This document shows positions 31,215 to 34,827 of a stretch of 64,000 bases of DNA, piece by piece. This DNA is from an uncultured Poribacteria bacterium. GTDB taxonomy: Bacteria > Poribacteria > WGA-4E > WGA-3G. Under the pieces are notes generated by a model, which was not told where the DNA came from, searched no databases, and saw only the letters and a list, made by a program, of their open reading frames with translations. Every line of letters begins with the position of its first letter. Within the stretch, counting starts at the first letter, position 1. Made by a program: the position numbers and the translations under genes. The stretch covers positions 3,008,001-3,072,000 of the forward strand of contig OX638351.1 of NCBI GenBank assembly GCA_951813565.1, in the 5' to 3' direction.

Positions 31215-31252
31215 AATACTATGCAAAAGTGCATCCGAAAATGTGTATAGGT
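31215..31252 (+). promoter_or_regulatory. Conserved 38-bp upstream motif, copy 1
   Basis: aatactatgcaaaagtgcatccgaaaatgtgtataggt, identical at 33834-33871. Confidence 0.75.
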
Positions 31253-31319
31253 GAATCATTATCATTTTTTGATAATGGTATCCTATTACCGCTGAATTGC
31301 GGAAAAGGAGGTATTTGTT

Positions 31320-31352
31320 ATGTTAGCAAATCAGAGGAGGTGTGGCACTTAG
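31320..31352 (+). CDS. Putative leader peptide MLANQRRCGT
   Basis: Strong RBS aaggaggt; overlaps a 22-bp hairpin. Confidence 0.5.
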   Translation: MLANQRRCGT

Positions 31353-31387
31353 TGTTACGCCCTTTGGTGTGGCACTAAGTGTCGCAC
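31340..31387 (+). other. 22-bp RNA stem-loop
   Basis: All five non-Watson-Crick positions are G·U pairs on the + strand. Confidence 0.75.
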
Positions 31388-31397
31388 ACTTTCTGAC

Positions 31398-31431
31398 GGG
31401 ACAGAGGTTTATCCTCTGTCCCCAATTTTTT
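31398..31431 (+). terminator. Intrinsic terminator
   Basis: gggacagagg/cctctgtccc stem followed by a T-run. Confidence 0.75.
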
Positions 31432-31505
31432 GTGCACCTGAACCTTTTACCACGGTTTCTATAAATCTTTATTGAAAATTAAGTGAATGCGTCTTGAATA
31501 CTTTA

Positions 31506-31532
31506 AAAAGTGCATCCAATAATGTGTTAAGG
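31506..31532 (+). promoter_or_regulatory. Conserved motif, degenerate copy 2 upstream of infA
   Basis: aaaagtgcatcc-aat-aatgtgt-taagg, same spacing as copy 1. Confidence 0.6.
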
Positions 31533-31723
31533 CAAAACTACTTAAGAATTAACAACCTATTCTTCATTCGCACCTGTCCATAAAATCCATCACATAATGA
31601 ATCATAGGTACGTAGTGTTTTTAGGAATCGACGCCGAGAATTTACGTCTTAGCAAATAATCTGCAAATGATTGAATTGCGCATTTACGTTGAAACGACTT
31701 GTTAAATAGAAGGAAGTAAAAAG

Positions 31724-32020
31724 ATGAAAGGCAATAGAAAGAGGAAAAGAAAAGACATAACGCGGGAAAACACAAGACAGGAAAGTTTAGAATCAACAAA
31801 AGATTCAGCTATCCGTGTGCCAGGGATAGCTTTAGAATCTCTACCGGGTAACCTATTTACTGTGGAGTTGACAGAGAATGGTCACAAAGTTGTAGCATAC
31901 CTTGCTGGAAAAATGATGAAGCATAAAATATGGGTGCTGCCGGGAGACCAGGTTACCGTTGAACTTTCGCCTTATGACTTGTCGCGTGGACGGATTATCT
32001 GGCGGAAGCCGGAAAAATAA
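31724..32020 (+). CDS. infA: Translation initiation factor IF-1 with basic N-terminal extension
   Basis: ESLPG…[14 protein letters not shown]…[21 protein letters not shown]. Confidence 0.9.
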
Positions 32021-32039
32021 ATACTATCTTTGGCTGGCT

Positions 32040-33038
32040 ATGATGACTATGGAAGGCATTATAATAAAAGCACGTGGTGGTACATACGAAGTGCAGATTG
32101 GCAATCGGTGCTATACCTGTACGTTGCGCCATCATCTTATTGAAGCTGAAAAACGTCGTCTCAATGAAACAAAAGAGATGCCGTACGTTGATTTGGTTGC
32201 CGTGGGTGACCGTGTTCGTATTTCTCCCTCGTCTTCTACAATGAACGCAGGATATATTGAGGAATGCTTACCACGGCAAACCCAATTCGGACGAACACGC
32301 ATGGACGGTAGGCGACAAGTTATTGTGACTAATCTTGAAATGCTGTTAATCATCTTCGCAGCACGGCACCCAACACTCAAATTGCGGATGCTTGATCGAT
32401 TCCTTGTCACTGCAGAAGCCTCAAATATAGACCCCGTGATCTGTATTAACAAAATGGATTTAGCAAAATTGGAGAATGTTCAACGCGAACTCAATTTATA
32501 CGAAGAATTAGGATATAAAGTTGTTTACACAAGCATCGTAACAGGTTTTGGGATCGATAACTTACGTGAAGTTATGCGGGATAGAATTTCAGCAATTGTC
32601 GGTTCATCCGGAGTGGGAAAATCTTCCTTACTGAATACGTTACAACCTGGACTACAGTTGCGTATTGGCGGGGTAGACTCCCGTATGCACAAGGGACAAC
32701 ATACCACTACAGAAGTCATGTTGTTACCACTTGAATTTGGAGGGTTCGTCGCAGATACACCTGGTATCCGAACGCTCGGATTACTTGAAATTGACGATGA
32801 ACAAGGGTTAGACATTCATTTTCCGGAGATGCGTCCTTATATCCCGGAGTGTAAATTTGCTGCATGTACACACCACCACGAACCAGCGTGTGCTGTTAAA
32901 CAGGCAGTCAAAACAGGTAATATCAATTCTCTCCGATATGAAAGTTACTTACGTATCTCTGGATTCACAGAAGGAAGATATGAGCGAAATACAGATAACA
33001 AACGAAAAAACCGAACCGAACGGAAACGCAGACGCTGA
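32040..33038 (+). CDS. rsgA: Ribosome small subunit-dependent GTPase A
   Basis: AVGDRV, INKMDL, GSSGVGKSS, GQHTTT, DTPG, CKFAACTHHHEPAC. Confidence 0.93.
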   Translation: MMTMEGIIIKARGGTYEVQIGNRCYTCTLRHHLIEAEKRRLNETKEMPYVDLVAVGDRVRISPSSSTMNAGYIEECLPRQTQFGRTRMDGRRQVIVTNLEMLLIIFAARHPTLKLRMLDRFLVTAEASNIDPVICINKMDLAKLENVQRELNLYEELGYKVVYTSIVTGFGIDNLREVMRDRISAIVGSSGVGKSSLLNTLQPGLQLRIGGVDSRMHKGQHTTTEVMLLPLEFGGFVADTPGIRTLGLLEIDDEQGLDIHFPEMRPYIPECKFAACTHHHEPACAVKQAVKTGNINSLRYESYLRISGFTEGRYERNTDNKRKNRTERKRRR

Positions 33039-33810
33039 TCCGGAAAAATGGAAAAGTGTCATTCATGGATTGCAGCAGATTATTGATAGAACCGAGCAAA
33101 AACTCATATATTTTCAGAATCGTCTGAAGCGAGCACAGTTCATGGAAAGCCCAAGTCTGCGAAAGGTACGTGCAGCGGAAGCGCAAGTTGACATGCATTC
33201 AGCGCAGCTGGAGAGTTTGCGGAGTGAGTTGCACAATTTAGAGCGCCTCCAACATGGTGGAATCCTACTCCGCTCAACAACTCAAAATGAACTACGCCGA
33301 ATTTGGGGATGGATAAATCTACCCGATATGAGGGGTATGCTATATACACAAAAAATATCGTTTGAAATCTTTGTAGAGGACTGGCAACGTTGGACAGAGG
33401 ATGTAGAAACCCATGCACTTTCAATTGAAACACACACCACGCGACTCCTACTCGGGTTTATGCTTCTCCGATGCAACGCTGACGTCGTTGTTGTGAAGTT
33501 TGTAATCATTCGACCTGGTTACCGCGCTCGCGGCTACGGAATGGACGCTCTTACGGAGGCAGTGCGTTATGCGTTTGAGGAGTTGAATGCTGTTCATATC
33601 ACCTTACAGGTTTCACCTGATAACGATGCTGCAATCACATGTTTTGAAAATGTGGGATTCCAATACCTCGGTTATACTGATGTAGACGTACCGGTTTACA
33701 CGATGGGAATTGAACGAAGCGAGTGGGAAAATGATAATCCAGGCAATCCAACAGATGAGCAAATTACATCCCAACGGCTGCATGCCACGCTCCAAGAGTT
33801 CTTAAAATAA
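32980..33810 (+). CDS. Coiled-coil plus GNAT (RimJ/RimL-like) acetyltransferase
   Basis: YRARGYG, NDAAITCFENVGF; likely start ATG 32980. Confidence 0.75.
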   Translation: MSEIQITNEKTEPNGNADADPEKWKSVIHGLQQIIDRTEQKLIYFQNRLKRAQFMESPSLRKVRAAEAQVDMHSAQLESLRSELHNLERLQHGGILLRSTTQNELRRIWGWINLPDMRGMLYTQKISFEIFVEDWQRWTEDVETHALSIETHTTRLLLGFMLLRCNADVVVVKFVIIRPGYRARGYGMDALTEAVRYAFEELNAVHITLQVSPDNDAAITCFENVGFQYLGYTDVDVPVYTMGIERSEWENDNPGNPTDEQITSQRLHATLQEFLK

Positions 33811-33833
33811 AAAATTTTACAGATTTTTGGAGT

Positions 33834-33871
33834 AATACTATGCAAAAGTGCATCCGAAAATGTGTATAGGT
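33834..33871 (+). promoter_or_regulatory. Conserved 38-bp upstream motif, copy 3
   Basis: Identical to 31215-31252. Confidence 0.75.
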
Positions 33872-33995
33872 AAAATCATTGTGATTTTTTAAGTTTTATT
33901 GTATACTTTTGCATGTAGCATACATGCATGAGATTTCACCGATGTCTGTTGACATCCTTAACCCTATTCCAAAATTTACATAAGGAGGGACCGTT

Positions 33996-34076
33996 ATGTC
34001 TTTGAACCACACCACCCTTAATCTAAACGTATTACTTACAAGGCGATGGTGCCTCTGCCCATTCTCAATATATTGA
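33996..34076 (+). CDS. Putative leader peptide MSLNHTTLNLNVLLTRRWCLCPFSIY
   Basis: RBS taaggagg; overlaps hairpin 34041-34103. Confidence 0.5.
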   Translation: MSLNHTTLNLNVLLTRRWCLCPFSIY

Positions 34077-34124
34077 TTTGAAATGGCATAGGTACCAGCG
34101 CCTCACTCTGAGGAGTCGTTATCT

Positions 34125-34499
34125 ATGTCCGAATTTAATCCCGATTTTTGGGAAGTTCCGGTGCCACCGGAATTTTTTGACCAACTGACTACGGAAGACC
34201 ACCTCTGGTATCAGTCCCCCTCTGACGAATATACAAAGGCACGTCAAGCAAAACGGCAAAAAGTCTTAGAACAGATTCGTCATATTGTTTCCAAAGAACT
34301 GACTGGTCGCCAAAATGATTGCGTTCAACTCTATTTTTACGAAGGGAAAACACAAGAGGAGATCGGTTGTATCCTCGGCATTTCTCGCAGGGTTGTCAGT
34401 CAACATCTCTTTGGTGTCACGCGGGGCGGGAGGAAGGTCGGCGGCGCGATTAACAAAATCCGAAAGATGTGCCGCAAATTGGGAATACACTATCCGTAG
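34125..34499 (+). CDS. Sigma70 region-4 HTH-only regulator
   Basis: LTGRQNDCVQLYFYEGKTQEEIGCILGISRRVVSQHL; no region 2. Confidence 0.8.
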   Translation: MSEFNPDFWEVPVPPEFFDQLTTEDHLWYQSPSDEYTKARQAKRQKVLEQIRHIVSKELTGRQNDCVQLYFYEGKTQEEIGCILGISRRVVSQHLFGVTRGGRKVGGAINKIRKMCRKLGIHYP

Positions 34500-34827
34500 T
34501 TGTCTTGTAAACAGAACTATTTGATTGTAGAAGAGAATCGCCGTGAGAGAGAATCTTAATAGTTGTCTCTCACGGTGAGCACCTTAATTTCACCTTCAAC
34601 TTAAAACGCTAAACCGGAATTAAATTGGCGTTTTCCCTACCATCTTATTCTTTTCTTTTGCAACCCTCTTGCTTTAAGCAAAAACGGTTCATCATGGAAC
34701 TAAAAGCATGGAGATTTCACGCTGCCCACTGAAACTTACAGATTGCCAAAAATCCGTATCTGTAGTATCCTTATTTCCGTTTCTTATATCAAAAATCTCA
34801 CGGAAAAACACAATACTTTGAAAAAGG

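Follow-up and report, generated by a model that had tools for sequence, protein, structure and literature searches.

A candidate translation-stress circuit of a sigma4-only regulator, a promoter box and a leader gated by an upstream reading frame in Poribacteria and other uncultured phyla

Transcriptional programmes dedicated to stalled or immature ribosomes have been well described for the most part in Actinobacteria, where WhiB7/WblC serves this function. The locus considered here lies in a 64,000-nt stretch of the genome of an uncultured Poribacteria bacterium (the window; contig OX638351.1 of assembly GCA_951813565.1, positions 3,008,001 to 3,072,000) and encodes a 124-residue regulator that carries sigma70 region 4 (sigma4) only, together with a repeated 22-nt box and a leader that contains a uORF (upstream open reading frame). 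Computational analysis indicates that these three elements probably constitute a dedicated translation-stress circuit. The regulator represents a real and apparently undescribed family, with a presumed translation-stress input and possibly a new promoter class; a search of the main texts of openly available papers found no description of the regulator family, box or leader. The promoter tables for extracytoplasmic function (ECF) sigma factors in the supplement of PMC7826278 may be relevant to the box.

WhiB7/WblC is a small regulator with uORF attenuation and positive feedback on its own promoter, and its regulon contains translation factors, GNATs, ABC transporters and small RNAs (PMC7157823, 10.1101/2023.06.02.543512). 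The present locus resembles it in these respects, but the regulator is an unrelated sigma4-fold protein without a match to the WhiB family. WblC binds GAAAWY 3 nt upstream of the -35 element with the housekeeping sigma and acts on about 200 promoters, whereas here the 22-nt box overlaps the spacer and the -10 region, no GAAAWY-type site lies upstream of -35, the conserved site is AAAGTGCATCC-N6-GTGT, and about 1-9 sites are found. A uORF-controlled terminator before the regulator gene, as in WhiB7, is present in silico, with a translational output in Poribacteria. The split sigma factors Sig7-Sig8 (Orf7/Orf8) of Tn916 and SigO-RsoA of B. subtilis share the sigma4-only subunit and auto-activation, and Tn916 also the priming through ribosome-stall attenuation (10.64898/2026.10.01.756105, PMC10028694); split sigmas also appear in the reference list of the ECF reclassification. 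They differ in that here no sigma2 partner was found adjacent or co-distributed, the system is chromosomal with its own uORF switch, and the box is predicted to lie about 11 bp closer to the start than a -35 element. The circuit would work like WhiB7/WblC or Tn916 Sig7-8; it falls outside the former and probably outside the latter, a divergent, unlinked sigma2 partner being conceivable. The toiL-topAI, vmlR and vga(A) leaders likewise contain a uORF with a strong Shine-Dalgarno (SD) sequence, in which an early or start-codon stall releases an occluded ribosome-binding site or terminator (PMC12121999). Those leaders control an effector, while here a transcription regulator is controlled, the output flips between termination and occlusion across phyla, and one helix arm (B) is kept. 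ECF sigma factors and YlxM/UPF0122 proteins share the sigma4-type helix-turn-helix (HTH), but ECF factors contain a sigma2 domain in the same polypeptide, which the regulator does not, and its FNPxFWEV and LFG-R-G-GGA elements are specific to its family.

Pfam recognises only Sigma70_r4-type domains in the regulator, and neither a sigma2 nor a WhiB-family domain; a TIGR02937 match is confined to the C-terminal part and reaches 35.6 bits, below the cut-off of 42.9. The AlphaFold model (pLDDT 90.6) shows an extended N-terminus, a 27-residue helix, the sigma4 HTH and a β-hairpin after the recognition helix. With VIA-align, residues 31-124 align with sigma4 domains (Z 11.4 to SigL), and region 4 of SigL, SigH and SigB provides the best structural matches. 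FNPxFWEV forms an N-terminal segment and LFG-R-G-GGA the β-hairpin insert. A homology of the N-terminus to sigma3.2, hinted at by eye and by long Foldseek alignments, is supported neither by hhalign to the host primary sigma nor by VIA-align and stands as a lead at most. Structures of UPF0122 proteins give weak, HTH-only profile matches (E 5e-6), and PF04297 (YlxM/UPF0122) does not match this protein and is carried by 21% of its Atlas cluster. At 50% identity the family comprises 367 clusters, with look-alike clusters in Myxococcota and Hydrogenedentota. Viral contigs contain no relative, and plasmids nothing beyond weak HTH matches. Several distant relatives (L325, L327, L329, L330, L332, L337) directly precede genes with a YYRHSAQD motif that appear serine-recombinase-like by eye, which suggests a mobile-element branch of the family.

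A preliminary description of this DNA reported two identical 38-bp copies of a motif, a same-spaced third copy before infA, and infA, rsgA, a GNAT gene and a Sigma70_r4-only protein downstream, all of which is borne out. Positions 31215-31252 and 33834-33871 are identical over exactly 38 bases, and the third copy starts at 31506. The 22-nt box pattern contained in them occurs exactly six times in the 5.43-Mb genome, three times within the locus, and a weight matrix for the box core detects nine genome sites above 22 bits versus none in a reversed-genome control. Three Poribacteria genera have the box ahead of the regulator gene, as do Latescibacterota, Handelsmanbacteria and Planctomycetota records. 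Orthologues from Latescibacterota, Handelsmanbacteria, Zixibacteria and Planctomycetota records, taken from the best 80 of 208 loci, mostly show this box about 300 nt upstream. The autoregulation that had been proposed is supported.

When orthologues are scored at E <1e-40 and boxes by the exact pattern, with a genome whose sole match has E=1e-4 counted as protein-negative, 41 Poribacteria genomes divide into 30 with box and protein, 2 with protein only, 1 with box only (a genome 73% complete) and 8 with neither; the reversed pattern matches none of the 41. An even draw of 121 genomes from a second phylum, the Latescibacterota, yields 46, 5, 3 and 67, respectively, with one control match, and near-match boxes are present in the 5 protein-only genomes. 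The box occurs in 1-6 copies per genome and is nearly restricted to genomes bearing the protein. The picture of a dispersed mobile repeat in random contexts, which would have spoken against the preliminary description, is rejected on these few copies, their confinement to protein-bearing genomes and their fixed spacing across phyla: the box tracks the regulator across genomes.

Co-variation between recognition helix and box is stronger evidence than co-occurrence, because co-occurrence is trivial for linked sites and related genomes are not independent of one another. Genes with an RRV helix have GTGCATCC upstream in 103/112 cases. Paralogues with the helix x[PAVST][ST]-VSQHL carry GTGCCT(T/G)A in 13 of 15, in the form AAAGTG-CCTTA-N5-TGTGT, and QQx genes have (G/A)TGGGTGTA in 6 of 11 (GTG-GGTGT), one of them with a complete AAAAGTGGGTGT-N5-CGTGT. 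Apart from one RRV gene with two box types, there are no cross-matches between these classes. The varying bases sit at the 3' side of the hexamer, and this is the side contacted by the N-terminal residues of a sigma4 recognition helix. Because paralogues that differ in the recognition helix also differ in their box, whose spacing stays the same, the sigma4-only protein very likely recognises the box, and the co-variation, joined by the co-occurrence, favours the motif reader that the preliminary description had in mind. In QQx-class genes (L328, L333, L336, L338, L343) the box lies just 40-50 nt or so before the gene and no uORF is seen, which is probably a near-leaderless form of autoregulation. 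CCTTA-class paralogues (L256-L261, L302, L312-L321) have structured leaders of their own, with tandem CCGCTAATAACGG hairpins or another conserved fold and a terminator at the end; these leaders have no Rfam match and are candidates for new riboswitches or protein-binding leaders.

The two small reading frames noted earlier, each with a strong SD sequence, are present at 31320-31352 and 33996-34076. The hairpins described as running from their Arg-Arg codons over the stop exist and cover the stop codon, but the first begins one codon before the Arg pair. The second frame, encoding MSLNHTTLNLNVLLTRRWCLCPFSIY, is the uORF of the regulator leader; the hairpin at 34041-34105 covers its stop, and the fold of 33872-34140 reaches z=-3.4. 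Leaders could be parsed at 103 of 110 loci, and 102 of the 103 contain a strong-SD uORF candidate, four of these picks being evidently the wrong frame. In silico, the uORF, predicted to be translated, overlaps one arm of mutually exclusive helices, as in ribosome-mediated attenuators of the toiL/vmlR type, with covariation weak or absent for two of the helices. Arm B (GCCTC) falls in reading frames 0, 1 and 2 across lineages. RRW is retained in 24/24 home-genus loci because its codons encode the RNA helix, and elsewhere RLW, TRW, GRW, SPP, LAS or TSA is found. The proposed family of RR(W)C arrest peptides is abandoned: the element is read in three frames, RR is lost in genera g3 and g5 and in Latescibacterota and does not occur outside the home genus and its close kin, and RR(W)C amounts to a helix plus an SD sequence read as codons. 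The two short frames do persist across relatives, as the preliminary description had asked, but their peptide sequences are not conserved.

Folding in the presence of a ribosome indicates how this leader may operate. In the window, arm C becomes free to pair over the regulator ATG once a ribosome stands at codon 14 or further on. In 20 Poribacteria-type leaders, mean pairing of the ATG region is 0.67 without a ribosome, 0.37-0.45 with a ribosome at codons 1-14 and 0.82 at codons 18-22. For the Latescibacterota type, 24 leaders were used (of 27, three had no parsable terminator), and mean terminator probability is 0.49 without a ribosome, 0.14-0.15 at codons 1-3 and about 0.7 from codon 12 onwards. 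With the ribosome early in the uORF, terminator probability is 0.18 versus 0.68 with a shuffled uORF (20/20 loci, the Latescibacterota-type leaders whose terminator formed at the stop), and start-codon pairing is 0.37 versus 0.81 (18 of all 20 Poribacteria-type leaders). The B:C covariation score of Poribacteria is reached in 0/500 shuffles. The regulator leader is a conserved three-state uORF switch, predicted to be ON only with a ribosome early in the uORF and to act through a terminator in Latescibacterota and start-codon occlusion in Poribacteria. Folding, shuffles and B:C covariation thus lend in silico support to the ribosome-dependent switch suggested for this leader. Rfam 15 contains no match at gathering score; a lone Acido-Lenti-1 match, in L319, falls outside the leader, about 800 nt upstream of the gene. 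Insertions or transposase genes occur in or beside leader and cassette in L005, L011, L012, L038, L060 and L126; the leader loop of L005 holds a 128-nt insert, with both arms intact.

For the promoter geometry, the second A of the box is numbered 0 (33845 for box 3). A pyrimidine-purine (YR) step is found at positions 26/27 in 0.71 of 213 distinct sites, as against 0.07-0.41 at other positions and 0.51 at the TATA-like 22/23. Conserved 5' helices begin at positions 25-29 in cassettes and in the paralogue class. RNA-library contigs from four runs, which belong to one study and cannot establish a start, begin at 33872, 33875, 33880 and 33885, with silent flanks and neighbouring genes nearly uncovered; another contig aligns from 31535 and has unrelated sequence before that point. 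Most of rsgA and of the GNAT gene lacks RNA cover, to which no weight is given. In one case (L287) the target ATG is at box position 26. Together, these data point to a +1 at position 27. GTGT would then span -10 to -7 and the box about -27 to -17, some 11 bp or one helical turn nearer the start than a -35 element. The gap between hexamer and GTGT is then 6 nt, compared with the 16-17 nt between the -35 and -10 elements of split-sigma promoters. A weak YGAA is also present 16 nt after TGCATC, but this alternative (TGCATC-N16-YGAA), for which +1 would be near 38, fits the start data less well. No sigma70 -10 element fits the predicted start, and a sigma54-type promoter was set aside, as the sigma54 consensus does not fit the box by eye. 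The sigma70-type sequence TTGTGA-N17-TATACT downstream of box 3 is retained in relatives lacking this box; such matches number 10 in the region versus 8.6 expected.

Box 1 precedes a short RNA unit, the cassette ('leader 1'), whose long hairpin has the arms 31331-31361 and 31366-31396 and which reaches z=-10.9 as a whole. There are 60 distinct copies in different phyla, and all are box-driven. Their 9-11 codons are unrelated, and an internal GAGG, located 8-15 nt ahead of the stop, is read in three frames. Its terminator forms in every ribosome state in 10/10 copies folded, and the cassette is usually located elsewhere: in the home genus mostly after the spare infA and before box 3, this genome having it moved in front of infA, and in many Latescibacterota after the regulator, facing a convergent gene. 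A role of leader 1 as an infA attenuator is contradicted by both observations. The infA gene has a fresh box standing after the terminator of the first small frame, and a new box follows the cassette terminator in 12/60 copies. A convergent gene lies opposite at least 16/60 cassettes; the count is too low, since many of the 'same-strand' calls reflect the shadow of a convergent gene. The cassette is best read as a stand-alone, constitutively terminated and translated short RNA that is shared across phyla. Its role is a guess, either feedback pairing with arm B or the holding of ribosomes; pairing in trans of the cassette GGAGG with arm B is possible by eye in several genomes, but is confounded because any SD sequence is complementary to B.

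The box targets were assessed at 220 sites, which were hand-chosen and are not an even sample: the regulator follows 63 of them, the cassette 55, and other features the remaining 102. The latter comprise SCUG selenoproteins (15), WD40 proteins (12), ABC-2 permeases (11), an uncharacterised 161/332-aa protein (9), IF-1 (8), PcfJ-like (7) and CBM9-like proteins (5), RsgA (2), RIO (1), 11 other named genes and 21 without assignment. The ribosome theme is real but concerns a minority of targets, so that of the proposed IF-1/RsgA regulon the recurrent targets stand, while a mainly ribosomal content does not. Of the strong sites in this genome, three are at the locus and one lies before a second spare IF-1 gene (G000:146206); two more precede SCUG selenoprotein genes, and the last three precede an ABC-2 permease pair, a WD40 protein and the 161-aa protein, respectively. 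Separate lineages have IF-1 with RsgA, RsgA alone (two subfamilies) or RIO1-like kinases (below family cut-offs) downstream of the box or cassette; in eukaryotes, RIO kinases take part in maturation of the small subunit. A second IF-1 is present in 22/24 same-genus genomes, and an upstream box was found at 7/15 newly examined extra IF-1 copies versus 29/2000 random windows. The IF-1 copies seen (window 31724-32020; L362:681-1043; L244:342-698) all have long basic N-terminal extensions. Targets of the PcfJ-like and ABC-2 types are seen repeatedly in both phyla, and some possess uORF-terminator leaders of their own; the PcfJ-like proteins (L125, L135, L238, L240, L241, L291, L294) have lysine/arginine-rich N-termini in both phyla. 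The selenoprotein targets (L107:695-2230, L146:390-1967; sites G000:2853030 and 2855909) consist of two in-frame reading frames joined by TGA, which, read as selenocysteine, gives LDDESCUANGKRLR and LADESCUGSGKSLR; they have no Pfam match. We take these sequences to resemble the SCUG motif of selenoprotein N. The literature searched contains nothing linking selenoprotein N with Poribacteria. The 161/332-aa target (L119:490-972, L150:1937-2932; site G000:198243) has a 5' region that nearly copies the cassette 5' end, and its Atlas matches are unnamed clusters of Poribacteria and Myxococcota.

Table 1. Features of the regulator locus (positions in the window)
Feature	Position	Strand	Remarks
Box 1, AAAAGTGCATCC-N5-TGTGT	31225..31246	+	Predicted start ~31253, from YR bias and 5' hairpin beginning at +3
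Box-driven short RNA (cassette)	31253..31431	+	5' hairpin, SD 31304-31312, 10-codon ORF, SD-like GAGGAGGTG 31334-31342, long hairpin, terminator
10-codon ORF1, MLANQRRCGT	31320..31352	+	Length conserved (9-11 codons), sequence not
Intrinsic cassette terminator, predicted constitutive	31398..31431	+	Follows ORF1 (also given as 31398-31422)
Box 2, before infA-rsgA-GNAT	31506..31527	+	Predicted start ~31534; one RNA-library contig aligns from 31535
Spare IF-1 paralogue (infA)	31724..32020	+	One of three IF-1 genes in the genome; two carry the box
RsgA paralogue	32040..33038	+	One of two in the genome
GNAT acetyltransferase (Acetyltransf_3)	32980..33810	+	N-terminal extension
Box 3, putative autoregulatory site	33844..33865	+	Predicted start ~33872; four RNA-library contigs begin 33872-33885
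TTGTGA-N17-TATACT, sigma70-type promoter-like, candidate basal promoter	33879..33907	+	Consensus match only
uORF with strong SD	33981..34076	+	SD 33981-33992; 26 codons 33996-34076, including helix arm B 34048-34059
Switch arm C	34085..34127	+	Arm C 34085-34096; SD 34109-34115; C pairs with B or with regulator start region TTATCTATG (34119-34127)
124-aa sigma4-only regulator	34125..34499	+	N-terminal FNPDFWEV segment, long helix, sigma4 HTH (helix SRRVVSQHL), basic β-hairpin insert
Hairpin 3' of regulator gene, probable terminator	34539..34578	+	

In the proposed circuit, a basal sigma70-type promoter would produce a leader that is normally self-silencing. A ribosome traversing the uORF would cover arm B and leave arm C free to form the terminator (Latescibacterota) or to pair with the start codon (Poribacteria), while without a ribosome B would often pair with the SD sequence of the uORF itself, both states being OFF. 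If a ribosome were held on the start codon or within the first codons, ribosome stalling being the presumed input, B would be free to capture C, and the sigma4-only protein would be made. This protein would bind AAAGTGCATCC through its sigma4 helix and activate, rather than repress, transcription from about 6 nt after GTGT. Outputs would be its own gene in positive feedback, the short RNA (a probable feedback element or sink for ribosomes) and lineage-specific effectors, which may include spare IF-1, RsgA, a RIO-like kinase, GNATs, exporters and SCUG selenoproteins. A bolder and less probable version holds that these sigma4-only factors form a widespread family whose specificity is programmable, with at least three helix/box classes, and that they steer RNA polymerase to a new kind of promoter (GTGT at -10, box at about -27 to -17), shorter by one helical turn than any sigma70-family promoter and served by no dedicated sigma2. 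The RRV class would then be a cross-phylum response to 30S/initiation stress, with a short translated RNA whose second SD sequence at the stop acts as a ribosome trap or feedback RNA.

Several observations weigh against the circuit. The box search pattern itself required GTGT, and the co-occurrence counts include related, non-independent genomes. One RNA contig runs across box 1. In other subfamilies the leaders differ or none is present, and both tested leaders of genus g5 fail to switch in simulation. SD:B covariation is marginal (reached in 14/500 shuffles), C:D pairing is invariant and no better than shuffles, and B:C covariation in Latescibacterota is not above shuffles. IF-1, RsgA or RIO directly follows the box at just 11/102 non-core sites, and genera g3 and g5 have the regulator with a single IF-1. 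No conserved sigma2-like neighbour is evident among 637 reading frames from 80 loci, as judged from cluster listings, and scans of this genome with PF12645 and PF04542 yielded, respectively, nothing over cut-off and no partner. An intact-looking sigma2-only frame (G000:594424-594771) has close orthologues in 2/32 genomes and is not co-distributed with the regulator. The genome contains 52 Sigma70_r2 matches over cut-off, many in frames of 850-1080 aa (ECF fusions), and several broken ECF genes.

These sigma2 results also bear on the alternative that the protein is the sigma4 half of a split sigma whose other half, a sigma2 protein that is unlinked and unrecognised, reads either GTGT or the weak YGAA 16 nt after TGCATC, with the leader switch unchanged. 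The sigma4 fold with its preceding helix, the auto-activation of Tn916 Sig7-8 fed by ribosome-stall attenuation, the ECF-like spacing of TGCATC-N16-YGAA in column counts and the recombinase-like neighbours of distant relatives would all suit such a factor. However, ECF spacing predicts a start near 38, whereas the YR bias peaks at 26/27, the 5' helices begin at 25-29 and the RNA contigs reach 27, and the missing partner adds to making a split sigma unlikely. A loading factor is conceivable as well. Antiterminators of the Q/AlpA type load at a promoter element and then let RNA polymerase read processively through terminators, and the regulator might likewise bind the box in a promoter, load on RNA polymerase and read through the cassette and leader terminators. 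The position of the cassette terminator, which has no RNA antiterminator, directly before the regulator, GNAT or RIO-like kinase in many genomes is in line with this idea; it is rendered improbable by the cassettes that face a convergent gene, the terminators that are followed by a new box, and a predicted start without a fitting sigma70 -10.

The same wiring could also serve another signal, the uORF sensing amino acid or tRNA shortage (e.g. Cys, Thr or Pro), or the circuit responding to envelope or redox stress with IF-1 and RsgA as passengers. Most distal targets are indeed selenoproteins, permeases and propellers, codons for Thr-Thr and Cys persist in home-genus uORFs, and SPP or YPPP is the ending of many Latescibacterota uORFs. 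These residues, however, lie on arm B and shift with its frame, the ON window comes early, with a sequence that varies from lineage to lineage, and RsgA of two subfamilies and RIO-like kinases were recruited separately, so that little credence is given to such a signal. The resemblance of about 90 nt after box 1 to the sequence after another site in the genome shows that local duplication occurs, as would suit a copied promoter fragment without a common regulator; this reading, like that of a repressor operator, is very improbable in view of the fixed spacing across phyla, the co-variation with the HTH, the 1-6 copies mostly in protein-bearing genomes and the structured RNAs that begin at a fixed offset from the box.

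The translation-stress circuit, if correctly read, points to an independent ribosome-stress response in several uncultured phyla, including sponge symbionts. It would supply an unannotated sigma4-only protein family with a DNA target and tie bacterial RIO-like kinases and spare copies of IF-1 and RsgA into one regulon. It may further provide an unusual promoter geometry, of which natural specificity variants exist.

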